Virus record (IMG/VR): IMGVR_UViG_3300045988_142996
Span: 3,868-67,867 of that record
Reading direction: 5' to 3' (one strand)
DNA: 64,000 bases
DNA from: a virus
Numbering within the stretch: position 1 is the first letter of the stretch; each line of letters opens with the position of its first letter. The notes beneath the pieces are model-generated. The model was given only the letters and a program-made list of their open reading frames with translations. It searched no databases and was not told the DNA's origin. The position numbers and the translations under genes were made by a program. This document shows positions 10,101-62,261 of the stretch, piece after piece.

Positions 10101-13100
10101 TTGATTAGCACATCGCACAAAGCATAAATCAGCGTTTCCAATGTAGTCTCGATTTTGGGCAAGCATGCAATGAGAACATCGCAAAGAGCTGTAATAACGG
10201 CAATAAGGACATTTCCAATTGCAGGTATAGCTTTAACAATGGCATTGCATACTGCCACAATAATTTCTGCAATACCAGTTGCAATACCACCGATAGCACT
10301 GCCAAGACCAGCAATAACTCCCGCAATGAAAACGCCAACAGCCGCACCAAGTGATGCAAGCGCGCCAATGAGTGCACTTATCTTTACCGGCATGAGACTT
10401 ACAGCGGCCATCGTTCCAAGTAGCAATGCAAAACTTCCAGCCAGCAGGCCAAGCGCAACAGATACTGCAACCACGATAGGACCCGCAAGTGAGAGCGCGC
10501 CAATTGCGATTGCAAAGGTTCCAAGTGCTCCACCAAGCGCCAACAAGCCATGACCAATTTCAGTAAGCGACATCTCACCGAGTGCTTTTATCGGAGGAAC
10601 CAAAGCGTTTAACACCACCGCCATAACCAGGAAGGATGCAGCGCTGCCCAACGAACCTTTTACGAAAGTCAAAGCGAGACCCATTTCAATCAGGCCGCCT
10701 GCCAATGCAGCTAATGCCAAACCGATTTGATCAATCGTCATGCTGCCAAGATTAGTCATTGCATTAGACAGTATCAGAATTCCACCTGATAATATTGTCA
10801 GTGCGACTGCCGTTGAGAGCATGTGCTCGGCAAGAGACGATATCACACCAAACACAGCAATCTCTGCCAACAATCCCCCGATGGCGGCAAGGCCCTTTTT
10901 GAGATTATCGACTGGCATTTCGCTAAATTTGGAAACCGATTTTTCCAAGACTGCTAAAGCTGTGGCGAGAATCAGAATTCCAGCCGCCTTCCCAAGCGAC
11001 AATCCGTTAAACTTGCTTAAAGCAGAAAATGTGACAATTTCTGCAAGTAATCCACCAGCCGCAGTGAGTCCTTTCCCTATTTGATCCCACTTGAGATTGC
11101 CAAGTTGCTCAACCGCTCCTGCTAAAACACGTACCGATGCGGCCATAATCAGCATACTGGTTGCGTGCTTGGTGCCATCTTTTGCCCACCTTGAAATTGC
11201 AATTTGAACTGTGACAAGTTCAGCCATCACAGCGCCAAGCACTATTACTGAACCGAGAAGTTTATCCGAATCAACAGCTGCAATCTTTTTCAACGCAACC
11301 GAAAGAATAAGAACCCCTGCGGCCATAGCGACCATCGCTGTAGTTCCTTTTCCAACCTTCTTCGTTTTTTTCGTTATTTCATCAAATATCGCAAGCGAAG
11401 TCAGAAGTTCCGCAAAAAGTGCTGTCATCGCAGCCACAGATGCTGCCAATCGCTCCGGTTTCACCAGAGATAGTACAACAAGAGATCCTGCCAAAATGGC
11501 CACCGCGGTTGAGATGGTCTTCAGTGTCTCGGCATTCTTATTATTTTTCCATGCAGATACAGCATCTCCGAGCTTGTTAAGAAGCTCTGCCACACTGCCA
11601 ATGGTGTCCTTTATTGTTGAACCGATATCCTTAAATGCGTTGAAGAATCCCTTGATCCCCGCAATAAGACCAACAATCATCCCTGTATTTGCGAATCCCC
11701 AGATGGTATTTCCATCCAGATTTTTAAATGCACCCGCCGCGCCACTTCCCAACTCTTTAAAAATTTCTCCGAGCTGGTCGGTCAGCCATTTTAACTTAGG
11801 TATCACGAAATCAATAAATCTTTTTATCCAGTCGCCCACAGTCTTAATCGGATCGAACACAATACTCGTCTTGGCGCCAAGCTCAGCAATCCATTCAATA
11901 ACCGATTTAATAGCGCCAGATATTGTTTCAAGAACCGGGGTGATAGCGCTTGCAATATTCCCAAATGTTTCCGTGATATGAGACGATTTTTCAAGTTCTA
12001 CGAAATAGTCTCCGAGACCAGCAGCGACTTTCATAACACTCTTGGCAACCGGTTCAAATGCTGACAGCACCGTCCAAAGGGTATTTCCTGCTCCTTTGAT
12101 CACAGTCAGACCCATTTTCAGAACTGCAAATACGCCGGAAAATGCACGTTGCAAATACTCCGAGGTACTTTTACTGATGCTCATTTTCTTCGTCAGCTGG
12201 TCAAACGATTTTAATGTATCGTAGATGCCACTGCCCGTCGGTGCCAAAATTCCATTAAAAGCCTCTTTTATTGGAGAAAGAACCGATCCGATTCCCTTTA
12301 AAATATTTAGAATTCCCCGAAAGAAATATTCGCGGCCAGAAGTCTGTGCCATCTGATTTGCAAATTCTTCGATTGAAGATTCACCGTCGTCAATTTTCTT
12401 CACATAATTGGCGAAGGCTTCATGGTTCTTTTCGACTTCGTCCCTGGTGTATCCGAGTTTTTTCAGTTCTGCATCACTTTTATCAAGAAGGATTTCATAT
12501 CCATCAGCAGCACCTCGAATAGCCTGCTCCAAGTTATCCGCATCAATCTTTCCCGTCCGTAATGCGACACTAAGCGCTTCCTGAAAAGATCCAGCTTTTT
12601 CGATATCGTCATCCGTAATGATTCCAGCCTTATTAAAGCCTTCCTGCAATCCTGATTCCAGAATATCTCCAACATCACCGAGGCCGCTTCTCAGCAGTTT
12701 CGTCCAGCCGCTATCAAATCCCTCATGGAGAATGCTATTTCTAAGATCCTTACCTTCAGCAAACAAGTCATAGAGTTCGTCTGCAAGGTCGCTCCAAAAG
12801 CCTTTTGCCTCTTCATAGTCACCAAATATAATTTCAAAGGTCTGCAGCCAACCCGTGCTCACCGCATCTTTTGTTGCATCGATAGCCTCACCGAAGCTCT
12901 TTGCTTCCTGTGCGGCTTTAAACGCTTTTACGGTGACGTCATCGTACTTATCGGCTAATTCGTCGATAGCCTTCGATGCCGTAGTATACTTATCAGGCTC
13001 ACGATCCATCAGATCTTTGACTGCCTGCGTGAATTCAGCCATCTTGCCAAAGGCCTGCTCCATGACTTCCTTATCCGCCCACTTCTTTGCAAGAGTGGTC

Positions 13101-13855
13101 TGAAAGGTGCCGACCGTCACTTCGCCTTCTTTAATTTTGCCTAGCTCCACACCAGTTGCAATGATCTGTCGCTTCAATTCTGCAGTAGCAACACCCGCCA
13201 GCTCAACCGATTTCCAGTCCATCAGGTTCAGATACCCCTGACTGTAGCTCTGGTTCAGATTGTAAATCACTCGGCTGAACTCACTGGCCCCTTTGCCGGC
13301 ATAGGCTGTGGCATTGGCAATGCCCATGATCATCGGAATCAGTTTGTCAACATCGCCGCCTGCTGCGGTAAGTTGTCCTAAAGATGCCGTCATGTCAGTG
13401 AAGCCATAGCTTGTCTCATCCGAGTACCACATCAGCTTATCGAGGTAAGAGTTCACTTTAGTAATCGACTTACCCGTTGCATTCATGATGGTCTGAACAC
13501 TTGCTGTCTTTTGCGCGTATTTATCCCAACCTGCGGATACCTGGTCAATCGACAGGTTTTTTACCAGCCGTTCACCCGCATCTACCACTTGGTTTGTAAT
13601 TTTGGTTAAGGCGGCTATTCCAGCAATTTCCAAAGCTGAGAATTTAGAATTTAGGGTCTCAAGTGCCGATGTCATCTGCCCAAAATCAACTTTTTCGGAG
13701 GCATTTTCAATCTTGTTGAAACCTTTTTCGGCTCCGTCGAAACGTAAGCTCTTATTCAGATTTGCCAAACTGGCAAGGGTTTTTTGCACGTTTTGCTCAA
13801 ATCGCGCATTGTTGAATTGCATTTCCACAACGCGCTGGTCCACTTCCTGGCTCAC
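7196..13855 (-). CDS. Tail tape measure protein (TP901-type core), about 2,219 aa
   Basis: N-terminal region ...SLGQLTAAGGDVDKLIPMIMGIANATAYAGKGASEFSRVIYNLNQ... matches the TMP core. A huge Ala/Gly/Leu-rich hydrophobic centre and coiled-coil Lys/Glu repeats follow. GTG at 13855 overlaps the upstream TGA (GTGA), with GGAGG 7 nt upstream. Confidence 0.9.
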   Translation of the reverse strand: MSQEVDQRVVEMQFNNARFEQNVQKTLASLANLNKSLRFDGAEKGFNKIENASEKVDFGQMTSALETLNSKFSALEIAGIAALTKITNQVVDAGERLVKNLSIDQVSAGWDKYAQKTASVQTIMNATGKSITKVNSYLDKLMWYSDETSYGFTDMTASLGQLTAAGGDVDKLIPMIMGIANATAYAGKGASEFSRVIYNLNQSYSQGYLNLMDWKSVELAGVATAELKRQIIATGVELGKIKEGEVTVGTFQTTLAKKWADKEVMEQAFGKMAEFTQAVKDLMDREPDKYTTASKAIDELADKYDDVTVKAFKAAQEAKSFGEAIDATKDAVSTGWLQTFEIIFGDYEEAKGFWSDLADELYDLFAEGKDLRNSILHEGFDSGWTKLLRSGLGDVGDILESGLQEGFNKAGIITDDDIEKAGSFQEALSVALRTGKIDADNLEQAIRGAADGYEILLDKSDAELKKLGYTRDEVEKNHEAFANYVKKIDDGESSIEEFANQMAQTSGREYFFRGILNILKGIGSVLSPIKEAFNGILAPTGSGIYDTLKSFDQLTKKMSISKSTSEYLQRAFSGVFAVLKMGLTVIKGAGNTLWTVLSAFEPVAKSVMKVAAGLGDYFVELEKSSHITETFGNIASAITPVLETISGAIKSVIEWIAELGAKTSIVFDPIKTVGDWIKRFIDFVIPKLKWLTDQLGEIFKELGSGAAGAFKNLDGNTIWGFANTGMIVGLIAGIKGFFNAFKDIGSTIKDTIGSVAELLNKLGDAVSAWKNNKNAETLKTISTAVAILAGSLVVLSLVKPERLAASVAAMTALFAELLTSLAIFDEITKKTKKVGKGTTAMVAMAAGVLILSVALKKIAAVDSDKLLGSVIVLGAVMAELVTVQIAISRWAKDGTKHATSMLIMAASVRVLAGAVEQLGNLKWDQIGKGLTAAGGLLAEIVTFSALSKFNGLSLGKAAGILILATALAVLEKSVSKFSEMPVDNLKKGLAAIGGLLAEIAVFGVISSLAEHMLSTAVALTILSGGILILSNAMTNLGSMTIDQIGLALAALAGGLIEMGLALTFVKGSLGSAASFLVMAVVLNALVPPIKALGEMSLTEIGHGLLALGGALGTFAIAIGALSLAGPIVVAVSVALGLLAGSFALLLGTMAAVSLMPVKISALIGALASLGAAVGVFIAGVIAGLGSAIGGIATGIAEIIVAVCNAIVKAIPAIGNVLIAVITALCDVLIACLPKIETTLETLIYALCDVLINCTPKILETIDSVIGSIFNYIGSKFGALGKWIGEKIQSAFKSEHGVDPQSSGEYVAEGYAKGIEKEGDKAVDAVEELADSQNDAFNDYWGIASPARLAIENAGYIVSGLVEGIQNGTPAAETAMSILARSMDNAFRDEVGIHSNADDGIENGEYYDGGVIEGLENKASDVEDEARDVGRRTGAAYKEGLQEELSNALNDPSLTPQERRQLQMDLRDSGLNAIPAKKKADGFDWTSLYGNRENPDADSGNTDGSGGTGTGKKKTKSSTKQKTVAEQITEKYKTQLAANKTLKDTVDEEYDLWLKENQYSASVDELLAKKTENAAADIQHQTDRVAIAQAKYDELAKRWGKDKTETKEAYLDLLEEKTSLADLKAEQYVGLFDDVTKRYDTDLDTLEKEYGLWTAQNDKTATQTDKINRETEYMTAELAIKEKKLAKAQEQYDALKAQYGEEDMRTMEAWNDLLDARTEAQELQNDLAQQELNLIDAQIDAISTAQSRMQSRMDILNTVYSDGDLSQREDAYKSAVEEYGKDSEQAKKAQFQGTTTSILGVVTALKNMNFQLKETAKYQEILNSENATREEKEAAQDNLLSSQSAFLGFASNLAEAFNLEDEGKSMVVKLAYAVQKNWKPLSEGLTKAWNKASQNLPENVKTGLSNAFGAAFSDEGIEIGTEFTSAIVSALQGDWAGAAVSAVTAALDFMGTNEGKKMLEGVGQLFDKALPALEQGFGQIVGIVQNAGGEITGLLAGAGGISEVATGVVGTIGGAFSSLIGLLPEIWPFILAGGIILALLGGIAAIAIKHAKDKKQSDAAKDAGSDLDKDFADGITDGKDTVDDAIKDMTDDATNIAIAAVGAIKRVTDDEYEYTPTISPVVDLTDVDESTDIINRAFDNVSLDGGTTKRLAAQVDAAAELQNGVKAQSNADLLNAVNALGGRMDGVADSIHGMSVVVDGKTTIGWIDAGLGARAARRAR

Positions 13856-17079: not shown

Positions 17080-18843
17080 TCAGGCAACCTTGTACTCGAT
17101 GGCCATTGCGCTGAAGGGCACAGTCAGTGCGCCGGAGCAGCGGGTCTCGATCAGATACTTCTGCTGGTTGTAGTCGATGTCAAAGTCATCGAACATGTTC
17201 ACGGCACCGCCCTTGTCAGCACCCACGGTGTAGTCGGTCAGGTTGACCACAATGCCAAACAGCTCGCCGCCCTTGGCACCCTTCAGGCCGGCCATCTGGG
17301 GCACGGTCACGATCTCCTTCACACGCATGGCCTGTGCAACCTCTGCCTCGTTCTTGTACAGGCGGTGGCCGATTTTGTCCTCCAGCAGGAGCATGTCGGT
17401 CAGGTTGTCCTCAGTGGTGAACAGGGTCGGGTTGCCGCTGCCCTTGTAGTCCTTGCGGGCCTTCAGGGAAGCATTCATGGCAGCCTTGATCTTGGTCTCG
17501 GTGTCTGCGCCGGAAGCGACCTGGGCCTCCACCTTGATGGTGTAGAAGTCGTCATCGCTCACAATGGGGCGGATGTTGCCCTCGTTGATCTTGTCATCGG
17601 AAGCAGCGTTGCGGCCATCGCCGATCAGGTAGGCACGAGCCAGCTCCTCGTTCAGCTTGGTGCGCATCTCCTGCTTCAGCCAGGCGATCACGTCAAAGCC
17701 GGTGATGTCTGCAATGTCATCGCGGTCCATCTTCTGCTTCTTGTAAACGGTGGTGGGGCTGGTGGAGCGCTTCAGCAGGCCGAACACCTGTTCCTTCTTG
17801 AAGTTGCCCTTGATGTAGCCCTTGGCGCGTGCGTCCTCCTCGGTCAGGTCAGCGGCCATGCTCTTGACGCGGCTGAAGGGAATATGGTGCACACCGCCCA
17901 TGACCTTTGCGACCCAGCTCTGGTCGTTGTCAATGATGCGGGGCGGGTTGTCCAGCAGGTGATCCTCCGGGAACAGCCATTCCACATCCTCGATGCCGTG
18001 GGCGATAAAGGCATCCTTCATACTGCCGCAGCGCTTGCCGTCTGCCATGGCAGCGTTGACCTCATCCATACTGTGCTTCAGCACGCCCTTCTCGTTGTCA
18101 TTGTCGAAAACATTACGCTTCACGGTTTCTTCCTCCTTGTCTGTTTCTGCTGCATCGTCAGTGTCAGAGCCCTTGTTCTTCTTGGTTGCACCGATGATAG
18201 CGTAAACCACATTCTTCTGTTCATCAGTCATACTGTCGAAGACTTCCTTAACGGTCTTCTCATTACCCTGATTTTCAGTAGCATCTGCCATTTTTTCTTC
18301 CTCCTTTTCGTCAGAATGAGTGATCTTTTCTCCCTCATCCAAAGGGTTGTCGTCCGGGTCCAGGCCATGGGTCAGGCTCAGACCACTGTCGGTATAGATC
18401 ATGGCTTCGTAGCCATCATCTTCGTTGTAGTCGGCGCTGTGCTCCACGATCTCGTCGATCAGAGCACCCGGGTTGCATCCGGTCAGCACCAGACTCAGCT
18501 CCCGGATTACGCCATGCATCACCGTATTGCCGGCTTTCTTCAGGCCGTTTGCAAAGATGCTCATGGCATCAATGTCGCCGCAGCGCACCGCTTCCAGGGC
18601 CGTCTTGCCGCTTTTGGTGTCGTTCAGCTTCACATAGGCGTACACGCCATCCTTGCCGCGGTTCTGCAAAAGGGCATGGCCGAGTACATATTCCGGGCCG
18701 GAGTGATTGTGGTTCCACACCACGGGCACCTTCTTGCCGTTGTCGCCTGCAAAGGCGTTCGGCGCAATGGTCAGCCCGTCGTAGCACTTGGTGTTCGCCC
18801 TGGTCGCCCAGCCGGAAAAGTCATAGTCGAACGTCATATTCAT
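17080..18843 (-). CDS. Fusion of HK97-type prohead serine protease (S78) and HK97-fold major capsid protein
   Basis: N-terminus (VPVVWNHNHSGPEYVLGHA...DAMSIFANG...RELSLVLTGCNPGA) is protease-like. An acidic linker follows. The C-terminus (KGYIKGNFKKEQVF...LNEELARAYLIGDGR...TVPFSAMAIEYKVA) is capsid-like. Confidence 0.8.
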   Translation of the reverse strand: MNMTFDYDFSGWATRANTKCYDGLTIAPNAFAGDNGKKVPVVWNHNHSGPEYVLGHALLQNRGKDGVYAYVKLNDTKSGKTALEAVRCGDIDAMSIFANGLKKAGNTVMHGVIRELSLVLTGCNPGALIDEIVEHSADYNEDDGYEAMIYTDSGLSLTHGLDPDDNPLDEGEKITHSDEKEEEKMADATENQGNEKTVKEVFDSMTDEQKNVVYAIIGATKKNKGSDTDDAAETDKEEETVKRNVFDNDNEKGVLKHSMDEVNAAMADGKRCGSMKDAFIAHGIEDVEWLFPEDHLLDNPPRIIDNDQSWVAKVMGGVHHIPFSRVKSMAADLTEEDARAKGYIKGNFKKEQVFGLLKRSTSPTTVYKKQKMDRDDIADITGFDVIAWLKQEMRTKLNEELARAYLIGDGRNAASDDKINEGNIRPIVSDDDFYTIKVEAQVASGADTETKIKAAMNASLKARKDYKGSGNPTLFTTEDNLTDMLLLEDKIGHRLYKNEAEVAQAMRVKEIVTVPQMAGLKGAKGGELFGIVVNLTDYTVGADKGGAVNMFDDFDIDYNQQKYLIETRCSGALTVPFSAMAIEYKVA

Positions 18844-18894: not shown

Positions 18895-20163
18895 TCATAT
18901 CCTGCTGGCCGCGGCCCGAGCCAGAAGCCGGTCCACCGTTTCCTTGCCGCCTGCCATGGCGGTATTCTGCGCCTCTTCCGGGCTCTGGTTCAGGTTCTTG
19001 TTGCTCAACTCATCCGCACGCGGGTCTTTCGAGGGCTTCAGCCCGATCACCTGCCGGAACTCGTTGGAGCTCATGATCTCGTTGCGGGTAAACTTGTCCG
19101 CCATCTCGGCCACCGTACCAATGGGTGCCAGCTTGAACGGGTCACGGAAGAACAGGATGCTCTGGCCTTGACTTCTTGCGGTCTTGGTCAGGAACTTCCG
19201 CTTCATCTCGTCCACGATCGCGCTGATGATAGGCTCCACGATGCGGTTGTAGTAGTTGGTCATCGCCGCCTCGTCCGCTGTCCCGTTCATGATCTCGATG
19301 GTAATACCCAATTGACTGTAAAACATGTTCGTCAGGTATTCGATCTGCTTCAGAAGGTTGTTTTCGAGGCTGCGATTCAACTGCGTCACCCGCTCGGTGC
19401 CGTCCGTCCACGCAATGCCGTATTTCGAGTCCCGGAGCTGCTCTTCGATCTCCCGCCGGCGCTTGTTTGCCTGCTCTCTGCGGGCTTCACTCTTCACCAC
19501 ATAGGGCAGCTGAATGATCAGGTCCAGCTTTCCGGCACCGGCCTGCTCGTCTACCACGTCCAGAAGGCTCAGCTTCCGGATCAGGCGCTGCATCGTGCTG
19601 TTCGGCTCGTTCATAATGGCGTAGAACGGGTTCTCGATCAGCGCCACGGTCTTTTTCGGCAGAACCAGTTCTTCCTTCTGGCCGGTCCGGTCGTTGTAAA
19701 GCCGCACCCGTACGTGTTCGGGGTACCATTCCAGCACCTTACCCACCCGCATGGAGTAGATCTTGTAGCCACTGCTCTTGCTGGGGTCGTAGTCCGCTTC
19801 CACCGGCACCACGGCCACCACACCCTCGTCCAGCATGCTCATCACAATGTCCTGAATGAGCCCCCGCCCGGTCTGGTCGATGTTGGCTTCTAAATTCAGG
19901 CAAGAATTAAGGCCCGAATCGATGACCGAATCAAACCGGCCATTGTCATCGAGCCTTACATGCTGTATCGTGATGGCGCTGCAGTCCATCGAAATGCGGT
20001 TGTATACGCTGGTCACAAAAGTGCGTTCGTTGCCACGCGTCAGCCGCACCCGGTCAGGCCGGTAGCTGTACCCGCCTGCATATCCTCCAAAGTTCGGGGG
20101 AGGGTCCCGGTTCAGAAAAGCGTTCCAGGCGTGCTTCAGCCGGGAACCAAGATTCATTTCCAT
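18895..20163 (-). CDS. Portal protein
   Basis: About 422 aa, between the terminase region and the protease-capsid gene. ATG at 20163 (MEMNLGSRLKHAWNAF...). Portal family not determined. Confidence 0.7.
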   Translation of the reverse strand: MEMNLGSRLKHAWNAFLNRDPPPNFGGYAGGYSYRPDRVRLTRGNERTFVTSVYNRISMDCSAITIQHVRLDDNGRFDSVIDSGLNSCLNLEANIDQTGRGLIQDIVMSMLDEGVVAVVPVEADYDPSKSSGYKIYSMRVGKVLEWYPEHVRVRLYNDRTGQKEELVLPKKTVALIENPFYAIMNEPNSTMQRLIRKLSLLDVVDEQAGAGKLDLIIQLPYVVKSEARREQANKRRREIEEQLRDSKYGIAWTDGTERVTQLNRSLENNLLKQIEYLTNMFYSQLGITIEIMNGTADEAAMTNYYNRIVEPIISAIVDEMKRKFLTKTARSQGQSILFFRDPFKLAPIGTVAEMADKFTRNEIMSSNEFRQVIGLKPSKDPRADELSNKNLNQSPEEAQNTAMAGGKETVDRLLARAAASRI

Positions 20164-20198
20164 TTTGAATTTTCCCTTCCTCAAAAGCGCAGGAGTGG

Positions 20199-20657
20199 TT
20201 AAACCAGCATGCTACGATCATAGCGTTCGCTGGTTACTTTCATAACTGCCGAGATTGCTGTAGCGGCCATTCCTTTTTGAATCACTTGAGAATCAACAAT
20301 GTTTTTTCCAATTTTTGTCACGGCTCCATAGTTATTGTAGAGCGTATTGATGGTTCCAAGTGCCGTTGCTGCTGTTCCTGCAATCCCGATTGCCTGCTTA
20401 ATCCTATCTGGTTTTGCAATCAAGGATTCATACTGTTTTTCTTTTTGCAAACGGTTGATTTTTGCATTAAGCTCCGAATCGCTCAATTCTCTGACGCTCT
20501 TTTTCTCGTGTGCGTGGGTATAGTCAGGGTGGTCATTCTGCTGATATCTCTTTTTGCCTTCTGCTGTTAAGCTGCCATCCTTATTCTGATAGCGTCGGGC
20601 ACCCCACTTCTGACCTTTGATGCCCCAATGATAAAGTTCATCATTATATATGGTCAT
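20199..20657 (-). CDS. Small protein with an N-terminal ELYHWGIKGQKWGARR motif and a C-terminal glycine-zipper hydrophobic segment
   Basis: AAAGGAGG lies 6 nt before the ATG at 20657. Motif at residues 6-22; LSDSELNAKINRLQKEKQYESL helix; IGIAGTAATALGTINTL hydrophobic stretch. Confidence 0.7.
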   Translation of the reverse strand: MTIYNDELYHWGIKGQKWGARRYQNKDGSLTAEGKKRYQQNDHPDYTHAHEKKSVRELSDSELNAKINRLQKEKQYESLIAKPDRIKQAIGIAGTAATALGTINTLYNNYGAVTKIGKNIVDSQVIQKGMAATAISAVMKVTSERYDRSMLV

Positions 20658-20726: not shown

Positions 20727-20933
20727 TTACGGGATAATATCCAAAATGGACTCGCACATTTTTCCGATTTCGTTCGGGAAATAATTGTCATCCAGACCTC
20801 GGTATTCAAGTTCGTCGCCGACCCGCTCTTCGATATCCGCCCATTCATCAGAAAAATCATTGATTTTAGTATAATCGTAGTTGAGCCCCAAACTTCTTAA
20901 AAACTCAATCTGTTTCTCGGTAAGCATACTCAA
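20727..20933 (-). CDS. Small acidic protein, candidate immunity/antitoxin for the upstream toxin-like gene
   Basis: 68 aa with about 17 D/E versus 6 K/R by my count. Its start abuts the stop of 20934..21422. Confidence 0.55.
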   Translation of the reverse strand: MSMLTEKQIEFLRSLGLNYDYTKINDFSDEWADIEERVGDELEYRGLDDNYFPNEIGKMCESILDIIP

Positions 20934-21422
20934 TCACCTTTTCGTGTATTTTCGGATTGCGTCATGCCCTGTTTTCCAAACAGTTGTGATGCACCCGTTC
21001 TCTGGATTTACATTTACCGTTGCGTACTGTCCAATGAATCGCTGGCTTGGCTGGCCTTTTTCATTGTAGCGTACTTTTATTTTATCAGCATTTAATGGCT
21101 TTTGCAATGCATCCAGCATACCGTCAAGAGTAACCTGTCGTGTTTTATCCTGTGTGCGAGCCAAGGCATGAATCGAGAGTCCTTTTACAAGTACACCATT
21201 TGATGTATAGAACGGTTTTCGGAATTTCCGTGCCGCTCGAGCCTCAATTGAATACCGATCATGCTCAAGCTGCTCTTTCGTTCTCCGCACACCCCACTTC
21301 ATACCCTTAATGCCGTAGTGCCACAGCTCTTGAGTACCATCAGTCCATCTCCACATTTGGTGGCATCCTCTTTCTATCTGTTCTATTGCGTTTGTAACCA
21401 TCCACGTGTTATACTTATTCAA
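20934..21422 (-). CDS. Toxin-like protein: N-terminal ELWHYGIKGMKWGVRR motif plus a C-terminal DUF4258/RelE-like (BECR-fold) domain
   Basis: C-terminus LSIHALARTQDKTRQVTLDGMLDALQKP...GQPSQRFIGQYATVNVNPENGCITTVWKT follows the H-x3-R-x3-R ... G-x-(I/V)-T-(V/W) pattern of DUF4258-type RNase toxins. The start codon is uncertain (TTG at 21422 or ATG at 21401). Confidence 0.55.
   Translation of the reverse strand: MNKYNTWMVTNAIEQIERGCHQMWRWTDGTQELWHYGIKGMKWGVRRTKEQLEHDRYSIEARAARKFRKPFYTSNGVLVKGLSIHALARTQDKTRQVTLDGMLDALQKPLNADKIKVRYNEKGQPSQRFIGQYATVNVNPENGCITTVWKTGHDAIRKYTKR
21386..21415 (+). promoter_or_regulatory. Sigma-A-type promoter for the plus-strand two-gene cassette
   Basis: TTGCGT (21386..21391), 18-nt spacer, TATACT (21410..21415), about 45 nt upstream of the ATG at 21463, which has a GAGGAGG RBS. 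Confidence 0.45.
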
Positions 21423-23084: not shown

Positions 23085-24830
23085 TCACTCAAACGCATCC
23101 CGGTTATTCTTATAAGCTACATACGCATCCATCATAGCGGCAACCGCATCGATCTTCTGATCATACCTCTGTTTCAGAAGCTTGCGGTTGCCGTTTGTGT
23201 CTTCCAGGGTAATGCAGTTGCCCATAGCAAATTGCATCAGTTGCTCGTCAAACAGCAGTTTTCGCTGTTCGCTCAGCTTCTTCAGCTCGCCCAGCGGCAC
23301 GCTCTCTGTCTTTGCGCCCTGGATCACCTTCTCGATGGCATACTCGCCGTTCTCTCTGGCCCATCGTTCCACAAAGTCCTTTGCGTTATAGGGGTCGTAG
23401 CCGAAAGACCGTACGTCGTACCCGCTGTTCTCGATAAAGTGGTCAAGGTCGTCGTACACTTCCATCATGTCCAGCACGGTGCCTTCCAGCACCACAAGTG
23501 TTCCCTCCCGCATGAACTCGTCATACTTCTGCCGCATTGCAATGGGCAGCTTCGAGAGGGTGTAGCTCGTAATGTAGTCCCTCGTCTTCACGCCGAAATA
23601 TCCGTGCTCCATCGGGAACAGGAAGGTAAACGCGCAAAAGTCGTCGCCCTGGCTGAGGTCTGCGCCCATGCTGCACGCCATCTGCCAGAAGTCCCGGTGC
23701 CGGTGCGGCAGGGTCTCCTCGTAGGGGAAGAAGTAGGTGTAACCCTCCATCGGGATGCCGAAGCGCTTTGCCAGGATGTCATTCCGGCTGGCAGGAGCCT
23801 TCTCGGCGCGTTCAACGTCCAGCTGGTAGGCTTCGTAGCTCACTGTGGCTCCCAGGTTCGGGTTCGCCTTCACCCACATGCTGGGGTCATTTACCTCGTC
23901 GATGCTGTCCAGCTTGTAGTACCAGATGGACACATGCGGGTTCACATAGTCGCCCTTCAGGATGCTCATCAATTCCATTTTGATGTCGTCACCGCAGCCG
24001 TTGCGCACCGTGCCCTCGCTGCTGGTGGCTACGATCAGGTAATCCTCCACCTTGCAGCTACCCTGCTCGATAGCGCCAATGGGGTCTTCCCGGATGGGGC
24101 ACGAGAGCCATTCATCCACTGTGGCCACCTTGTCTCTCCGTCCCTGCAGCTTGTCGATGCTCATGGGGCGGATTTCCAAAAGGCTGTTGGTCAGGAAGTT
24201 CTCGATGCCCTTCTTCGTGCTGGCCAGCTTCACCCGCGCCGACTGGGAGCCGGTAGTGTTCTGCATGCTGCCTTCGGTCATAAAACGGTACAGCGGACCG
24301 CGGCTCCGCGCCAGTGCCGTGCGGATGGGGCTCAGCACCTCTTCCGCCTGCTTCATGGTGGGAGCCGTCGTGATCTGTTGCGTCGTGTGTCCGTCCACTG
24401 CAAGGAAGTATTGCTGGATGCAGCTGTCGTAGATGCTCTTTGCCGCGCCTCGTGCCACGATCAGATACTGCTTGCGGACAAGGCGGTGCTTGATGCGCTT
24501 CTGGATGTACCTGCCGCCATGGCCGTCGGGGTTGGGCTTGTAGATGGTGCGTTCTTCAAAGTAGTACCATCCGAAGATTTCCTCCGCCCATAGCTTGAAG
24601 GTGTCCAGCAACTTCATGTCACTGCCGTCGGTCAGGGTCAGTTCCCGTTCACAGAACTTCACAAAGCCATCCATGGCCTTGTCGTCGTAGTAGATACCCG
24701 GATTTGCGATAAGATCATCGATCCGGTTCATCTCCATGGAGATTTCCCTGCAGACAGGAATTTCGCCTCGCAGCACGGCCTCCCGGAAACGGCCGTAATA
24801 TTTTGGCGTAGCCGTGTTCGAGAGTGCCAT
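23085..24830 (-). CDS. terL: Terminase large subunit (Terminase_1-like)
   Basis: 581 aa. ...RKQYLIVARGAAKS (Walker A-like)... and a C-terminal nuclease-like half. Typical size and position. Confidence 0.85.
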   Translation of the reverse strand: MALSNTATPKYYGRFREAVLRGEIPVCREISMEMNRIDDLIANPGIYYDDKAMDGFVKFCERELTLTDGSDMKLLDTFKLWAEEIFGWYYFEERTIYKPNPDGHGGRYIQKRIKHRLVRKQYLIVARGAAKSIYDSCIQQYFLAVDGHTTQQITTAPTMKQAEEVLSPIRTALARSRGPLYRFMTEGSMQNTTGSQSARVKLASTKKGIENFLTNSLLEIRPMSIDKLQGRRDKVATVDEWLSCPIREDPIGAIEQGSCKVEDYLIVATSSEGTVRNGCGDDIKMELMSILKGDYVNPHVSIWYYKLDSIDEVNDPSMWVKANPNLGATVSYEAYQLDVERAEKAPASRNDILAKRFGIPMEGYTYFFPYEETLPHRHRDFWQMACSMGADLSQGDDFCAFTFLFPMEHGYFGVKTRDYITSYTLSKLPIAMRQKYDEFMREGTLVVLEGTVLDMMEVYDDLDHFIENSGYDVRSFGYDPYNAKDFVERWARENGEYAIEKVIQGAKTESVPLGELKKLSEQRKLLFDEQLMQFAMGNCITLEDTNGNRKLLKQRYDQKIDAVAAMMDAYVAYKNNRDAFE

Positions 24831-29258: not shown

Positions 29259-29560
29259 CACGCCACCTGCTCAACCAACACCGGATTTGTCTTCATCCGG
29301 GTCTTGCCGGTCTGACCGATCAGTTGTACTTTAAAGCTTCTGCCGTCGGTCACATCATCGGGCACAGTGCACTCAAAGTCGGCATTCAGCGCAACAGCGT
29401 ATTCGTCATTGAACACCATGACTTTCTTTGCATAGAGCCAATCATTGTCTCTCAATTGCACATGGCAGCACAGATACCCTTTGCTTCCGGCCATGATGCC
29501 GGAAAAATCGCCCTGCTTGGAAAGTTTCTGTCCTTCCACTGCAAACATCAGTTTCCGCAT
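29258..29560 (-). CDS. Hypothetical structural-module protein
   Basis: 100-aa ORF, translationally coupled on both sides (overlaps). Confidence 0.55.
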   Translation of the reverse strand: MRKLMFAVEGQKLSKQGDFSGIMAGSKGYLCCHVQLRDNDWLYAKKVMVFNDEYAVALNADFECTVPDDVTDGRSFKVQLIGQTGKTRMKTNPVLVEQVA

Positions 29561-29901
29561 CTAACTTCCTCCTTATCGCATTCGGTGTACAGCCGCCATT
29601 CCAGCTCGCTGATCATGCTCTTGGTCGCATCCATCACGCTGCTGGACTGAGGAGGATCGAACAGCAGACGAACTTTCATTGCCACGTAGCTTTTCACAGC
29701 TTCGATGTCAGCTTTGTTCTTACAGAAATCACTCCAGGTCGCCGTGGCGTCAACGATACCAAAACCCTCCTGCGGTCCTACGCCCATTTGACGAAGGATC
29801 ATCAGCACGCTGTTGATGTGCATGATAAGGTCGGTATCAAAGGCCGTGTACTCCTCGGTCAGCCCGAGCAGCTTCTTCACTGAGGTCAGGATACTGTCCA
29901 T
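29548..29901 (-). CDS. gp6-like head-tail connector protein
   Basis: MDSILTSVKKLLGLTEEYTAFDTDLIMHINSVLMILRQMG... resembles Phage_connect_1 (DNA-packaging / head-tail connector). Confidence 0.5.
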   Translation of the reverse strand: MDSILTSVKKLLGLTEEYTAFDTDLIMHINSVLMILRQMGVGPQEGFGIVDATATWSDFCKNKADIEAVKSYVAMKVRLLFDPPQSSSVMDATKSMISELEWRLYTECDKEEVRCGN

Positions 29902-31883: not shown

Positions 31884-34646
31884 TTATTTCTTCAGTGCAT
31901 CATAAATCGTGGATTTCGGAACATTACAGGCTTCAGCAACTTCGGCATAGCTGTAACCCATGTCAAGCATTGCTCGTGCTTTGCTCAATTTGGCATTAGA
32001 AAGCGTTGTCGATGCTTTCGGCATTGCGCGTTTGATGATTTCAGAAGAATCAGAACTGTTCAGAAACTTCGTCAACATCGAATCCGAAATTGCATGATTC
32101 TGAACAGCTTCCCATTCCTTGTCCGTAAAGACGATCTTGGAGTTCCGACCGCTTGCACCAACAGAATCTCGTGCACGCTGCATCTCAACAGCAGAGATCT
32201 TCTTGATCTCTTTCTTGTCGGCTTTGCGATCAAGGCCTTGTGCTTCGATTTTTGCATTGATGTTGGCGTTTGCAATAATCATGGCACGCCGTTCTTTTGG
32301 CTTGTTGGTCAGAACTGCCTGATACTTTGCTTTCAAGGACTCAACCTCTGCCGCATACTTCTTGGCCGCTGCCGGATCACGCCGGATGCCCTTCATATTG
32401 ACGGCTTCCTTGCGTGCCTGATTAGTCAGAGCCTTCAGGCCATTGGCAAAGTCTGCGTACAACTCCTCCTGCTTTGTGCCAGAGGACAAGGTATGGACAT
32501 CTTTGATCATAGAGATGCGACTTACCTCATCTTCAGCCACATGCACATTACCCTTCTCGTCCTTGTAGGTACGGCCACTCTCCTTGTAGATGAGTTCGCC
32601 GGTCTCCTTGTCGATACGTGTGCTGCCACGACGCTCAGGAACACGGACGGTCTGCTTGCGACGGGACAGCAGCGTGGATGCACCACCGTACTTCGTATTG
32701 CCGTCTTCATCCACCCGGATCTGGTACTTCTGCTTCAGCTCCTGGATGCCGTTTTCACGCTCAGACCTCTTGTAGTCCAGGCCATGCTTCTCAGCATCAA
32801 TGACAACCATAGAGTGGCGCACTGCTCGCTCCAGATCTTCTGGCGTTGCACCACGCAAGGTCATGTCCGTAATCAGGTTCGAGATAATTCCCATCTCTTT
32901 CTGCTTCTCATCCTTCTTCATGAGACGAACATTGTTGGGGTTGCCTTCCGGAACAGAGTAGGCAGTCTTGGGGTCGAAGTTCTTCAGACCAGGAAGCGGA
33001 TTCGTTGAGTTGATACGAACCTTATCGCTCATCGGGATAGCCATAACGGTATCGCCATCAAAGTCTGCACCAGACAGCCGCTCTGCGACCTTCGCGTTGA
33101 TGCCGATGGCGTCCTGAATCGCGCCCAAATTGCGCTTACCACTGAGGTTCTTGTTGTTGACAGTCACAACGGGAATCTCAAATGTGCCTGCATGCGGATA
33201 ACGAATCAGTGCAAGCTGTGTTCCGTTCTCGTATGTAGGGCAATAGGCTTCTTTCTCACTGATGTTATTCAGCGGAAGGATGACCTTCGTTGACTGACCG
33301 GGAAATGCAGACGCTTTCAGGGTCATGGACGTGCCTTCACACTGGTCAGCAAAGTCCATCAGCATTTTTTTCTTGACAGTCGGGTTCGTGTAATGCATGA
33401 TCTCATCGTACTCGGCCTTATAGTCAGCCATAGTGAGGTCAAGCTGGCGTTTGATGAGCGGAACGGGCTGCTTGGACAGGAACTGCGAAGAAACATTCTT
33501 CGACATCGTGTCCCAGTCGCCTTCTTCTTTCAGCTTATTGATGGGAGAAAGATGCTCTTTGCCGTCGGCACCAATATAAGTGCTCTGGCCGTTCGCTTTG
33601 ATGGCTGCACCGAACGGGTTATCCGGATCATCCTTGATGGGCTTGAAGACCTTCATCTTGGGTGTACCAGAAGGCTTATTGGTATTAAAGACAATATCAA
33701 CACCCTTCGGCAGGTCATCAGAATATACGGCCATGCCCTTCAGGTAGTGGCTGTCATCCACCATGATACGAACCTGCGCATAATGGGAATTGCCCAAATC
33801 CAAATCAGGAACGCCGCGGCGAATCTCCATAACACCGTCTTTTGCAAGGCCGCCTTCGTCGCCATAGCGCACCGCCACACGATCAGAGCTCATGCTCACA
33901 GGACGCTGTAGTTTTTTGAAGCTGTCTCCACCATCGTCGGAATGATAGTCGCCAAGGGACTGAATCTCACTCTGATGCTTGTAGGCATAGCTCTGATCGA
34001 ACTCAGGCTTGCCCAGAACGGTGATATTTGTCTGCTGACGAGGATTGGTCGGCTGCTTGATGCCGACACCATAGCGCTTATAGCCGTATTCCGCTTCCAG
34101 AATATAAACAGCCTCATCCAGCTTGCCTTCCGAGACGCCAAGCGTAAGGTTGGAACCTTCGGAAATATCAATCATGCCTTTCTTGTCAACTTCCTTCTTC
34201 AGGACGTCAGCAATCTTTTCAGCCTGATCTTTCTTGGTTCCAACGCCATTCTGGTACATGGAGCGGACCGTCGATTCGGACAGGTTCAACTTCTGGCCGA
34301 TTTCAGTCCAGCCTTTGCCATCTTCTTTCAGTGCACGAATCTGATCCCACTGCAGCGCTTTACGGTCATGGCCGGCTTTGGCTCTTGCCACACGAAACTC
34401 GCTGGCACCCAGCTTGTACTCATCGGGCAGAGTCGCATTGATGGCCTCAAGGATCTCATTTTCACTCATGCCCTGAGTCTTCAGCTTATCGATTCGAGAA
34501 ATAAAATCGCCCGAATGCTGGTAAGGCGTCTCGCCACTACCCCAGGGATAACGGCCAGAATGACGCTTGGTGCCGTAATGCTCCAGCGTATCGCCGCCGT
34601 ATTCAATACCAAAATAGCTCGAAATATCTTTTTCAACTGGATTCAT
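31884..34646 (-). CDS. YonO-like single-subunit two-barrel RNA polymerase candidate with HTH modules
   Basis: LIRYPHAGTFEIPVV...ERLSGADFDGDTVMAIPM is an RxP strand followed about 45 aa later by the DxDGD metal loop (compare beta-prime NADFDGDQMAVH). HTH-like GKGWTEIGQKLNLSESTVRSMY and C-terminal GYSYAEVAEACNVPKSTIYDALKK. Confidence 0.6.
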   Translation of the reverse strand: MNPVEKDISSYFGIEYGGDTLEHYGTKRHSGRYPWGSGETPYQHSGDFISRIDKLKTQGMSENEILEAINATLPDEYKLGASEFRVARAKAGHDRKALQWDQIRALKEDGKGWTEIGQKLNLSESTVRSMYQNGVGTKKDQAEKIADVLKKEVDKKGMIDISEGSNLTLGVSEGKLDEAVYILEAEYGYKRYGVGIKQPTNPRQQTNITVLGKPEFDQSYAYKHQSEIQSLGDYHSDDGGDSFKKLQRPVSMSSDRVAVRYGDEGGLAKDGVMEIRRGVPDLDLGNSHYAQVRIMVDDSHYLKGMAVYSDDLPKGVDIVFNTNKPSGTPKMKVFKPIKDDPDNPFGAAIKANGQSTYIGADGKEHLSPINKLKEEGDWDTMSKNVSSQFLSKQPVPLIKRQLDLTMADYKAEYDEIMHYTNPTVKKKMLMDFADQCEGTSMTLKASAFPGQSTKVILPLNNISEKEAYCPTYENGTQLALIRYPHAGTFEIPVVTVNNKNLSGKRNLGAIQDAIGINAKVAERLSGADFDGDTVMAIPMSDKVRINSTNPLPGLKNFDPKTAYSVPEGNPNNVRLMKKDEKQKEMGIISNLITDMTLRGATPEDLERAVRHSMVVIDAEKHGLDYKRSERENGIQELKQKYQIRVDEDGNTKYGGASTLLSRRKQTVRVPERRGSTRIDKETGELIYKESGRTYKDEKGNVHVAEDEVSRISMIKDVHTLSSGTKQEELYADFANGLKALTNQARKEAVNMKGIRRDPAAAKKYAAEVESLKAKYQAVLTNKPKERRAMIIANANINAKIEAQGLDRKADKKEIKKISAVEMQRARDSVGASGRNSKIVFTDKEWEAVQNHAISDSMLTKFLNSSDSSEIIKRAMPKASTTLSNAKLSKARAMLDMGYSYAEVAEACNVPKSTIYDALKK

Positions 34647-40572: not shown

Positions 40573-40879
40573 ACAAACATCTCCCTTCAATGGTAAAAAC
40601 AAAGAGCCGCATATTTCTCCACGGCTCGATACCTTTAGATTTTTTCACCAACTCATCATGTTCCTTTCTTGTGATATACCCATTAAAATAAGCTGAGGTC
40701 AGTCCATCCCAACGGCCCTGACGGTGTCCGCTTTTGTATCCGGCATCCCAAGTGGCCTTCCATTTCTTGTATCCCATCGTGTTAATCTTCAACTTGATGT
40801 AATCCACTTCAGCCAGCACCAAGCCAATAGCGGCACACATACCGACCATTTTGACAACAACTTTAAATGCTTTTTTCAT
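40553..40879 (-). CDS. Membrane-anchored hypothetical protein whose ORF reads through a terminator-like hairpin
   Basis: N-terminal TM segment (VGMCAAIGLVLA). The last ~20 codons (IEPWRNMRLFVF...) are the translation of the hairpin at 40604..40627 plus its T-run. Confidence 0.6.
   Translation of the reverse strand: MKKAFKVVVKMVGMCAAIGLVLAEVDYIKLKINTMGYKKWKATWDAGYKSGHRQGRWDGLTSAYFNGYITRKEHDELVKKSKGIEPWRNMRLFVFTIEGRCLYATHEH
40595..40627 (-). terminator. Member of the GAGCCG..CGGCTC hairpin family, located inside the 3' end of ORF 40553..40879
   Basis: Minus strand reads GAGCCGTGGAGAAATATGCGGCTC followed by TTTGTTTTT, one mismatch from the copies at 44004, 53736 and 61198. Confidence 0.4.
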
Positions 40880-43980: not shown

Positions 43981-43994
43981 TTCTGCGCCTCCAT

Positions 43995-44027
43995 AAAAAG
44001 AAAGAGCCGCAGATTTCTCCACAGCTC
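43995..44027 (-). terminator. Rho-independent terminator, GAGCCG..CGGCTC hairpin family
   Basis: Minus strand reads GAGCTGTGGAGAAATCTGCGGCTC followed by TTTCTTTTT. Confidence 0.65.
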
Positions 44028-53719: not shown

Positions 53720-53759
53720 AAAAATAAAAAGGTAAGAGCCGCAGATTTCTCCACGGCTC
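53720..53759 (-). terminator. Rho-independent terminator, GAGCCG..CGGCTC hairpin family
   Basis: Minus strand reads GAGCCGTGGAGAAATCTGCGGCTC followed by TTACCTTTTTATTTTT. Confidence 0.65.
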
Positions 53760-54963: not shown

Positions 54964-54999
54964 TATAAAAGAAAAGAGCCGCAGCTTTCGCCACGACTC
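54964..54999 (-). terminator. Rho-independent terminator (hairpin subfamily shared with 60198)
   Basis: Minus strand reads GAGTCGTGGCGAAAGCTGCGGCTC followed by TTTTCTTTTATATTTT. Confidence 0.6.
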
Positions 55000-59826: not shown

Positions 59827-60189
59827 CTACACCTCTTTCCGATCAAACACCGTCTCCCACCTCTCTTTCTTCATCGGTTTCATCCTGATGGCCCACATCA
59901 GCTGCCGGACAGTCACCGTCGGATAAAATCCATTTTGATTTTTCTTTTTGGCGTGTTCGATAAAATACTCCCGGAATCCTTCGTGCATATAGATTTTGTC
60001 CGTCAGCCATGGGTCGATGGGGCCCCAGAAAGTCGCTCGGCTCTTCTCATTGAATCTTTGCTGGATGACACACAGGCCTTTCCCATGCTCTGCATACAGC
60101 GTACAAGTCTGGTACACCGGGTGATTGCATCGGTAGGTCACGCCGTAGTAATGCGTCCACTCTTCGGACGGCTCGGTATAATATCTCAT
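59827..60189 (-). CDS. Hypothetical protein (no SD; the ATG abuts the terminator T-run)
   Basis: 120-aa ORF (MRYYTEPSEEWTHYYGVTYRCNHPVYQTC...). The upstream sequence is ...GGCCTCTTTTTTTTATG. Confidence 0.55.
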   Translation of the reverse strand: MRYYTEPSEEWTHYYGVTYRCNHPVYQTCTLYAEHGKGLCVIQQRFNEKSRATFWGPIDPWLTDKIYMHEGFREYFIEHAKKKNQNGFYPTVTVRQLMWAIRMKPMKKERWETVFDRKEV

Positions 60190-60223
60190 AAAAAAAAGAG
60201 GCCGCAGCTTTCGCCACGACCTC
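60190..60223 (-). terminator. Terminator-like hairpin plus U-tract immediately 5' of a start codon
   Basis: Minus strand reads GAGGTCGTGGCGAAAGCTGCGGCCTC followed by TTTTTTTT, then the ATG of 59827..60189. Confidence 0.55.
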
Positions 60224-61182: not shown

Positions 61183-61188
61183 CAGCGC

Positions 61189-61221
61189 AAAAAGAAAGAG
61201 CCGCAGATTTCTCCACGGCTC
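61189..61221 (-). terminator. Rho-independent terminator, GAGCCG..CGGCTC hairpin family
   Basis: Minus strand reads GAGCCGTGGAGAAATCTGCGGCTC followed by TTTCTTTTT. The hairpin is identical to the one at 53736. Confidence 0.7.
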
Positions 61222-62016: not shown

Positions 62017-62261
62017 TCTTCGCCCCTCCATTCGTAGCCTGTCTGCTCGAAAAGAAGCTTCGGCGAAATATAATAATTGATTCTCCCGTATTTTGAGCTC
62101 ATTTCCTTGAGATCGGTCACGCGCCTGCCGTTTCTCGTGGCCTCCCCAATCGGCAGCCATCCGGCAATGATACCAGCTCTCACCCATGCCGGATCACGTC
62201 CGTAGACCTTTGCTGCCACCCTCACTGGAACAGCACCCAATTTTAACCTAGCTTTGTCCAT
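62013..62261 (-). CDS. HTH DNA-binding protein (excisionase/Xis-like or early regulator), first gene of the minus-strand array
   Basis: 82 aa. ...VPVRVAAKVYGRDPAWVRAGIIAGWLPIGEA... is an HTH_17/Xis-like pattern. Divergent from the integrase. Confidence 0.45.
   Translation of the reverse strand: MDKARLKLGAVPVRVAAKVYGRDPAWVRAGIIAGWLPIGEATRNGRRVTDLKEMSSKYGRINYYISPKLLFEQTGYEWRGEE

Follow-up and report, generated by a model that had tools for sequence, protein, structure and literature searches.

Why do an RNA polymerase and two small proteins of the same phage begin with a related short peptide? The question arises from a 64,000-nucleotide stretch of the IMG/VR virus record IMGVR_UViG_3300045988_142996 (positions 3,868 to 67,867; hereafter the window), where a 920-amino-acid (aa) polymerase-like protein and two small proteins, of 162 and 152 aa, carry close to their N-termini a motif built around His-Tyr-Gly-x-Lys. 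The first-pass annotation had marked it at 34515–34646, which are polymerase residues 1–44, and had suggested a capsid-targeting or ejection signal on otherwise unrelated proteins. We found that on the small proteins the motif belongs to the Pfam family DUF7211, that this family is a short, mostly N-terminal tag in front of many unrelated regions in one phage lineage, and that the polymerase has the first half of the motif in common with it. Our preferred reading is that DUF7211 is a tag that loads ejected cargo, the polymerase included, into the virion by docking to a head component; we give it about an even chance of being correct.

The three motif strings were found exactly as they had been written down, all on the minus strand (Table 1). 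The pattern L.H[YW]G[ITV]K occurred three times in the 63 predicted window proteins, each time in the first 60 residues, while residue shuffling gave an expectation of 0.0015 occurrences for this pattern, which was picked post hoc. The observation of a common motif is confirmed as real and far beyond chance. The two small proteins were indeed otherwise unrelated, with only the 16-residue motif in common by BLASTP. Both matched DUF7211 (PF23847), a profile of 25 positions with a gathering score of 27 bits. The 162-aa protein reached 40.4 bits (E 1.9e-10) and its isolated 26-mer 41.2 bits; the 152-aa protein reached 27.5 bits (E 2e-6) and its isolated 26-mer 30.9 bits. The 83 other tagged proteins that were scanned all scored above the threshold as well. 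The DUF7211 consensus spans 20–25 residues and reads [DE]-x-L-x-H-Y-G-[VI]-K-G-M-K-W-G-x-R-R. Pfam annotates the family only as of “unknown function”, and a literature search for DUF7211 or the motif strings returned no paper mentioning either. Pfam already has an entry for the motif family, as a domain of unknown function (DUF); the context of the motif and its link to the polymerase are absent from the searchable literature. Two other kinds of element were ruled out. A WXG-type signal of the type VII secretion system does not fit: the motif has W-G where such a signal would have W-x-G within a helical hairpin, and one of its carriers is an RNA polymerase. A nucleotide-level element does not fit either, the conservation being at the amino-acid level across hosts as distant as Lactococcus and actinobacteria.

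DUF7211 behaves as a modular tag. Among 256 DUF7211 open reading frames (ORFs), the median distance of the conserved His from the start was 12 residues, and in 238 it lay within 40 residues. The C-terminal regions formed about 70 unrelated clusters, and a Ser/Gly/Lys-rich linker often came next after the motif. The attached domains included DUF4258 (PF14076, in the homologue P0111 of the 162-aa protein, E 1.3e-6), Ntox50 (E 1.4e-19), Gln_amidase, a papain-fold toxin and glutamine deamidase (E 2e-10), GNAT acetyltransferase (three clusters) and 2H phosphoesterase (three proteins, with the motif internal). The idea of a common short tag on differing C-terminal domains, polymorphic-toxin domains among them, therefore stood, and at the level of sequence the modular logic of tag and cargo is well supported. 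These partner domains were tabulated from IMG/VR loci and phage genomes. A motif-profile search of a 5.8-billion-protein collection retrieved only mini-proteins of 34–85 aa, because short sequences score best. Thousands of proteins in this size range are hardly more than the DUF7211 motif (P0121–P0240; Table 1). Other proteins had two motifs, each before its own domain (for example ORF7 of Lactococcus phage 1706); in locus L054 the order was tag, unknown domain, tag, DUF4258. These two-motif proteins look like concatenated cargo units.

The tagged genes, one to seven per genome, were concentrated around the terminase. In the IMG/VR loci, 187 of 215 DUF7211 ORFs (87%) flanked it, lying between the terminase large subunit (TerL) and portal genes or between the connector and TerL genes. 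All genes between TerL and portal carried the motif in ReqiPoco6 and in Arthrobacter phage Gordon, and in most relatives (1706, ReqiPoco6, Gordon, Bing, Fazel and metagenomic loci) the connector was followed directly by a DUF7211 gene.

The tag and the polymerase were found in the same phages. A tblastn search with the DUF7211 27-mer against 50,697 phage records gave 864 places in 240 records, and the polymerase was detected in 251 records. The host breakdown was alike for both (Arthrobacter 95, Gordonia 55, Streptomyces 54, Curtobacterium 7, Microbacterium 4, Faecalibacterium 2), and the apparent exceptions, BitterVaud1 and Caudovirus D_HF5_2C, do encode the polymerase. Of the IMG/VR loci with DUF7211, 77/80 had the TerL, connector, portal or S78-capsid genes of the lineage. 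By inspection of the table of loci, the polymerase was present wherever there was at least about 7 kilobases (kb) of sequence upstream of the connector. DUF7211 is specific to the lineage related to phage 1706 and to Faecalibacterium phage FP_oengus, including the actinophage clusters AM, AU, AW, DJ, BI, CC and EL.

Cargo of the toxin kind is represented in the window by the 162-aa protein, whose gene lies between those for the terminase and the portal. Its true start is likely MWRW at 21356, giving 140 aa, because homologues begin at MWRW. The AlphaFold2 (AF2) model had a predicted local distance difference test (pLDDT) score of 46–48 for the tag and >90 for the domain. In Foldseek searches the best matches of the domain were weak and were to toxin RNases, namely CdiA-CT, RelE, HigB and the C-terminal domain of a sequence-specific ribonuclease (3ao9). 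The protein P0119 has the same toxin domain fused to a MuF-type minor capsid domain (Phage_min_cap2, MuF2/PF06152); in a Pfam scan the 162-aa and 152-aa proteins gave DUF7211 only, with neither MuF domain (PF04233, PF06152). Directly downstream there is an acidic ORF of 66 aa, a candidate immunity protein, which matched no Pfam family. It was kept about 10 nucleotides 3′ of the toxin homologue in 19/19 loci, with 41–91% identity, and its divergence tracked that of the toxin. Judged by sequence, the pair is a classic toxin/immunity arrangement (PMC5576092), with toxin and immunity protein as candidate roles.

The second small protein, of 152 aa, is a single-copy core gene of the lineage, its C-terminal cluster having 73 members in 73 of 90 genomes. 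It matched ORF7 of 1706 in BLASTP (E 3e-6), over the tag and a second motif, LSxxEL..RLQxEKQY. Throughout the core ORF7-like family this second motif, LSxxEL...RLxxE(Q/K)QYxxL, was conserved 40–100 residues past the tag, at about residues 55–83 of the 152-aa protein and about 80–106 of 1706 ORF7, and was followed by a hydrophobic stretch rich in Gly, Ala and Thr. Upstream of the terminase, actinophage relatives have a gene that encodes an N-terminal 2H phosphoesterase (LigT-like), an internal DUF7211 motif and an ORF7-like C-terminus. This fusion protein could be a packaged cyclic-nucleotide or 2′-5′ phosphodiesterase.

The large protein is, by its sequence and modelled structure, a single-subunit two-barrel RNA polymerase of the QDE-1/YonO-like kind, with predicted activity. 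Pfam matches to HTH_23 and Sigma70_r4_2 placed sigma-region-4-like and resolvase-like helix-turn-helix (HTH) domains near its two ends. The residues S525, G526, A527, D528, D530, G531 and D532 of the catalytic loop SGADFDGD were invariant in an alignment of 75 homologues. The AF2 model had a pLDDT of 84 and a predicted template modelling score (pTM) of 0.75. A fold search was used because a sequence search against the PDB found nothing at E ≤ 1. Foldseek matched the model to QDE-1 (E 5e-9), to gp62 of P74-26, a non-virion RNA polymerase (RNAP; 3.6e-7), and to RDR2 (1.6e-6), and more weakly, at about 2e-3, to the largest subunits of multisubunit RNAPs. The likeness to QDE-1 and YonO consists of a single-chain two-barrel polymerase with a DxDGD loop. 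YonO, from the Bacillus prophage SPbeta, is a non-virion enzyme for late-gene transcription. It is too distant to be retrieved by tblastn with the window polymerase against phage genomes, and was not. Motifs like those of RNA-dependent RNA polymerases and YonO, and the restriction of the family to one supercluster, were already noted by Koert et al. (bioRxiv 10.1101/842583), who compared the polymerase family with YonO-like and crAss motifs.

How far the polymerase motif belongs with DUF7211 was decided by its halves. The first-pass annotation had linked the polymerase to the small proteins over the whole motif, and of this link the first half stood. With hhalign, polymerase and DUF7211 profiles aligned over the first half only, in 13–15 columns, with probabilities of 93.5–93.7% and P of about 2e-7. 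A run with a small hand-collected set gave 93.5% and 2.3e-7, and a second one with an independent set (149 polymerases, 120 DUF7211 mini-proteins) gave 93.7% and 2e-7. The observed score was 30.2, versus 7.8 ± 2.2 and a maximum of 19.8 for column-shuffled controls. A hidden Markov model (HMM) made from the polymerase half-motif alone ranked DUF7211 ORFs directly below the polymerases among 2,736 six-frame ORFs. The common first half reads [DE]-x-L-x-H-Y-G-[VT]-K, and from −5 to +4 around the His the residue preferences were near-identical in both families (D/E/N, D/N, E/Y, L, x, H, Y, G, V/T/I, K).

The second halves were unlike each other: GMKWGxRR in DUF7211 versus, in the polymerases, a loop of 3–10 residues and then SGR[YFW]x[WYQLK]G[ST]GxxPxQ. 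The window polymerase has the polymerase-specific SGRYxWGSG type. We examined 150 polymerase representatives (50%-identity clusters, from a family of 2,301 detectable representatives), and 149 of them had the polymerase motif, with the His at median residue 14. The Trp of SGR[YFW]x[WYQLK]G[ST]G was not conserved in these 149, so the proposed homology of a W-G frame with a short insertion had to be given up.

The tag is among the best-conserved positions of the toxin-like protein, where it is nearly invariant, and of the polymerase, where it is invariant, yet AlphaFold predicted it to be disordered. In the 75-homologue alignment H23, G25, S30, G31, R32, G36 and G38 were invariant, on par with the catalytic SGADFDGD, and residues 12–45 had a pLDDT below 50 in a polymerase model that was otherwise confidently folded. 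Conservation together with predicted disorder is the signature of a docking peptide that folds on its partner.

Evidence from virions comes from phage 1706. In its GenBank record (EU081845.1), ORF75, the polymerase homologue, and ORF7, a 462-aa protein with two DUF7211 motifs, were deposited as “structural protein”, a label also given to the connector ORF6 and to the expected head and tail proteins. A search for other independent virion data found none, and the “structural” labels of the ReqiPepy6 record had been copied from 1706. The 1706 labels are said to derive from sodium dodecyl sulfate–polyacrylamide gel electrophoresis and liquid chromatography–tandem mass spectrometry of virions, in the 2008 work of Garneau and colleagues.

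Under the preferred reading, the DUF7211 peptide would be a short linear docking motif that binds a conserved inner component of the assembling head, which may be the portal, the connector or the protease/capsid fusion. From this binding onward we infer the steps: the attached proteins would be recruited into the virion and ejected along with the DNA. The ORF7-like 152-aa protein would be the core component, and the other tagged proteins interchangeable cargo. In the window the cargo would be the DUF4258 RelE-like toxin domain with its cognate immunity gene, and in relatives the Ntox50, glutamine deamidase, GNAT and 2H-phosphoesterase domains. The polymerase, with its diverged tag, would probably share this loading route wholly or in part, and could then enter the next host ready-made and take part in early transcription. 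The interpretation in the first-pass annotation is, overall, partly supported.

Several observations weigh against this reading, most of them on the side of the polymerase. The Pfam DUF7211 model gave zero matches to polymerase residues 1–70 or to the 27-mer, even at E ≤ 10, and the polymerase was therefore not filed as a DUF7211 member; the significant alignment of its N-terminus is that of the first half in profile–profile comparison. The canonical second half G[MQ][KRH]W[GKH] was present in 0/150 polymerase representatives, and in a motif search of phage genomes the polymerase-type variant occurred on polymerases only; the two motifs could thus bind different partners. The covariation between DUF7211 and the polymerase half-motif within genomes was a weak excess (1.51 versus 1.33 ± 0.09, p = 0.023, uncorrected for phylogeny). 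On the side of the tag, the motif was more than 100 residues into the protein in 8 of the 256 DUF7211 ORFs. P0203, a DUF7211 protein of 62 aa from the same lineage, is encoded in the early/replication region, outside the head module. The oral phage D_HF5_2C has three DUF7211 genes in the interval from the major tail gene to the tape measure gene, and not beside the portal, so the position of tagged genes is not fixed. FP_oengus carries an integrase and is temperate. Because a prophage must begin lytic growth without virion proteins, an injected polymerase is not strictly required for early transcription. Finally, the virion evidence for 1706 is a depositor's product name, and for this phage and FP_oengus the presence of the three proteins in virions is a prediction.

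The first of the main alternatives keeps DUF7211 as a loading or trafficking tag and gives the polymerase motif a separate, polymerase-specific job, with autoinhibition, regulated turnover, and binding to DNA or to a transcription factor as candidates. The first half would then be common through old common ancestry or recombination in the lineage, and not through a common receptor. This would suit an invariant second half (SGRYxWGSGxNPYQ) that is unlike DUF7211 and restricted to polymerases, the variable length of the loop before it, the silence of the Pfam model and the weak covariation. It suits less well the near-identical residue preferences around the His, the place of both motifs at the extreme N-terminus in predicted disorder, and the structural label of the 1706 polymerase homologue. 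We regard it as unlikely.

Rather unlikely, too, is a reading in which the peptide docks to a common partner unrelated to encapsidation, such as a phage-encoded chaperone, a host factor (a protease or the host RNA polymerase), or the S78 prohead protease, which would recognise it for processing or degradation. Conservation with disorder implies only that the peptide binds something, the motif is also on the 34–85-aa mini-proteins and on an early-region gene, and the lineage has a distinctive protease-capsid fusion. Against this stand the 87% of tagged genes that are within the packaging/head module and the structural labels of two motif-bearing 1706 proteins; moreover, attached toxin domains with immunity genes make no sense unless the toxin arrives in another cell. 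That short strings of the polymerase and of the small proteins resemble each other by chance, without shared origin or function, is a reading for which one could cite the roughly nine aligned residues, the failure of the Pfam model and the post hoc search pattern. It is very improbable in the face of the shuffled controls, the reproduction of the alignment on independent sequences, the retrieval of DUF7211 ORFs first by the polymerase HMM and the N-terminal place of both motifs in the same lineage only, and we consider chance effectively excluded.

Known systems offer parallels for loading by a tag. In phage T4, a short N-terminal capsid-targeting sequence sends unrelated proteins (the internal proteins IPI–III, and Alt) into the prohead, which has a scaffolding core and undergoes cleavage by gp21; enzymes and anti-defence proteins are among the cargo ejected with the DNA. 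The likeness is a short terminal peptide common to unrelated cargo proteins, with the role in encapsidation proposed for DUF7211. We know of no sequence similarity between DUF7211 and the T4 sequence, and the head here differs in being HK97-like with an S78 protease-capsid fusion. Encapsulins load diverse enzymes by short, conserved, disordered terminal peptides that dock inside an HK97-fold shell. They resemble the present case in the kind of peptide and in the HK97-type shell, to which binding by DUF7211 is only proposed. They differ in that they are not viruses and that their peptides are usually C-terminal and unrelated in sequence.

The MuF toxins of temperate phages (Jamet et al. 2017, PMC5576092; the SPP1 gp7/Mu GpF family) have variable C-terminal toxin domains, of which Ntox50 is named and which also occur in other polymorphic-toxin systems, on a constant N-terminal head-associated module. 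They are like the tagged proteins in their variable toxin C-termini, in packaging-module genes that adjoin the portal and in a small downstream immunity-like ORF. The constant module here, however, is a disordered peptide of 20–25 residues, versus a folded MuF domain of about 200–300 residues, and its carriers also include non-toxin enzymes, a core protein of the structural module and, for a diverged form, an RNA polymerase. The virion RNAPs of N4 (gp50), the crAss-like phage phi14:2 (gp66) and P23-45 (gp96) (PMC10770324) have in common with the window polymerase the two-barrel core (gp66, gp96) and carriage in the particle, for which the present family has the “structural protein” deposition of the 1706 homologue. 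Their polymerases are in giant proteins (about 2,000–5,000 residues) or are fused to tape measures, whereas the one here is a stand-alone protein of 920 aa with HTH domains; a short loading signal is not described for the N4, crAss-like and P23-45 enzymes, and details of virion RNAP packaging remain to be elucidated (PMC10770324). By analogy, the best-supported reading is that the tag works by the logic of T4 capsid targeting, MuF toxins and encapsulins, with a different and much smaller label. A broader proposal, which we hold tentatively and rate somewhat below even, is that one disordered peptide of roughly 10–25 residues is a general head-loading label. The cargo packed and co-injected with it would be the compact polymerase, one core ejection protein, and a shuffled set of toxins, accompanied by immunity genes, and of enzymes that are candidates for anti-defence (2H phosphodiesterase, GNAT, deamidase).

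If the peptide is a loading signal, a function would be gained for a DUF of which hundreds of sequenced Firmicutes and Actinobacteria phages, common human-gut Faecalibacterium prophages among them, each carry several copies. The stand-alone polymerase of about 100 kDa would be explained as a virion protein; under the broader proposal this would be the smallest known delivery route for a virion RNA polymerase. The idea of phage polymorphic toxins would be widened from the folded MuF domain to include a peptide of minimal size. A transplantable head-loading tag of 20 residues would also be useful for engineering protein-delivering phages.

With respect to transcription, a promoter-like DNA motif (ACGCGAAAAAW-N10-YTTTATGRA) had been assigned to the early half of the genome, and we could confirm this. 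Its 11 sites, all on the minus strand, spanned 35.5–61.6 kb and preceded only early genes, with zero sites in window positions 1–34 kb. The same motif occurred 12–13 times in FP_oengus (2285–27683), always upstream of the polymerase gene. That an injected polymerase fires these early promoters is speculative. A family of GC-rich hairpins (GAGCCGCAG...CGGCTC), each followed by a T-run, was found on the minus strand, often immediately ahead of the promoter-like motif, an arrangement suggestive of numerous short transcription units among the early genes.

Bases 1–1878 of the window are identical to bases 62123–64000 (offset 62,122), indicating that the window is slightly over one copy of a circular phage genome of 62,122 bp. 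A recombinase-like ORF of 409 aa is present twice, one being the wrap-around copy. The genome is that of a relative of FP_oengus: the two polymerases have 77% protein identity, and the gene order is the same but reversed. The lineage is part of the supercluster of Lactococcus phage 1706 and actinophages. The minus strand encodes nearly all genes. In the order of transcription, early and replication genes (~62 kb to 35 kb) are followed by a Cas4-like nuclease and the 920-aa polymerase gene, then by small genes including an HNH gene, the Phage_connect_2 connector, head-fibre-like genes and the terminase. After a two-gene insert on the opposite strand come the 162-aa gene, the 66-aa ORF and the 152-aa gene, and then the portal, the S78 protease/HK97 capsid fusion and the tail genes. 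The S78-capsid fusion is, after the portal, a second candidate for the receptor of the tag, or a candidate processing enzyme.

Table 1 Positions of the motifs, genes and DNA elements discussed, in window coordinates unless a locus is named.
Feature	Position	Strand	Details
Polymerase N-terminal motif LEHYGTKRHSGRYPWGSGE	34530–34586	−	residues 21–39 of the 920-aa ORF
DUF7211 motif ELWHYGIKGMKWGVRR	21282–21329	−	in ORF 20934–21422
DUF7211 motif ELYHWGIKGQKWGARR	20592–20639	−	in ORF 20199–20657
Single-subunit two-barrel (QDE-1/YonO-like) RNA polymerase, 920 aa, predicted	31884–34646	−	phrog_4291 full-length, E=0
Catalytic loop SGADFDGD (residues 525–532), DxDGD metal-binding signature	33051–33074	−	translation and alignment
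DUF7211 tag with DUF4258/RelE-like toxin-like domain	20934–21422	−	162 aa from TTG
Acidic 66-aa ORF, candidate immunity protein	20727–20927	−	directly downstream of toxin-like gene
152-aa DUF7211 protein	20199–20657	−	Pfam DUF7211; phrog_32444 E 6e-54
Portal protein	18895–20184	−	Pfam Phage_portal E 6.7e-16; directly downstream of tagged genes; candidate tag receptor
Prohead protease (S78) fused to HK97-type major capsid protein	17080–18843	−	Pfam Peptidase_S78 and Phage_capsid; annotated homologue FP_oengus gp71
Terminase large subunit (TerL)	23085–24830	−	ORF; synteny with FP_oengus gp67
Phage_connect_2 connector (1706 ORF6-like)	29548–29901	−	Pfam E 2.6e-39
Tape-measure-sized ORF	7196–13822		separate from polymerase
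Phage_head_fibr protein, 375 aa	24919–26046	−	E 9e-10
Insert gene 1, 351 aa	21463–22518	+	homologue of FP_oengus gp68
Insert gene 2, 177 aa	22551–23084	+	
Recombinase-like ORF, two copies	376–1605; 62498–63727		409 aa
Promoter-like sites (starts)	35545, 40938, 44357, 54184, 55311, 55540, 57191, 57467, 59826, 61182, 61603	−	
Hairpins	40593–40625, 43993–44025, 53725–53757, 54965–54997, 60188–60220, 61187–61219, and others	−	
2H-DUF7211-ORF7-like fusion, ReqiPoco6 gp015	L010 14111–15727		
2H-DUF7211-ORF7-like fusion, Fazel gp13	L014 7513–9186		annotated “RNA ligase”
2H-DUF7211-ORF7-like fusion, ClubPenguin gp5	L016 2163–3269		
Two-motif proteins	L054 9452–10381; L091 5881–6900; L098 1515–3074		
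Mini-proteins	L018–L021 10001–10189		
Three DUF7211 genes of D_HF5_2C	L013 7307–9333		

The two plus-strand genes of the insert are interposed between the terminase and the toxin-like gene. The 177-aa protein matched a zinc ribbon weakly and seems to contain a hydrophobic segment; neither insert protein reached a Pfam gathering score, and a PADLOC scan of the tagged proteins and the plus-strand insert gave zero matches. The insert could be a moron or a defence cassette. Upstream of the terminase, the 375-aa protein matched a head fibre of the phi29 type, in a siphovirus-like genome.

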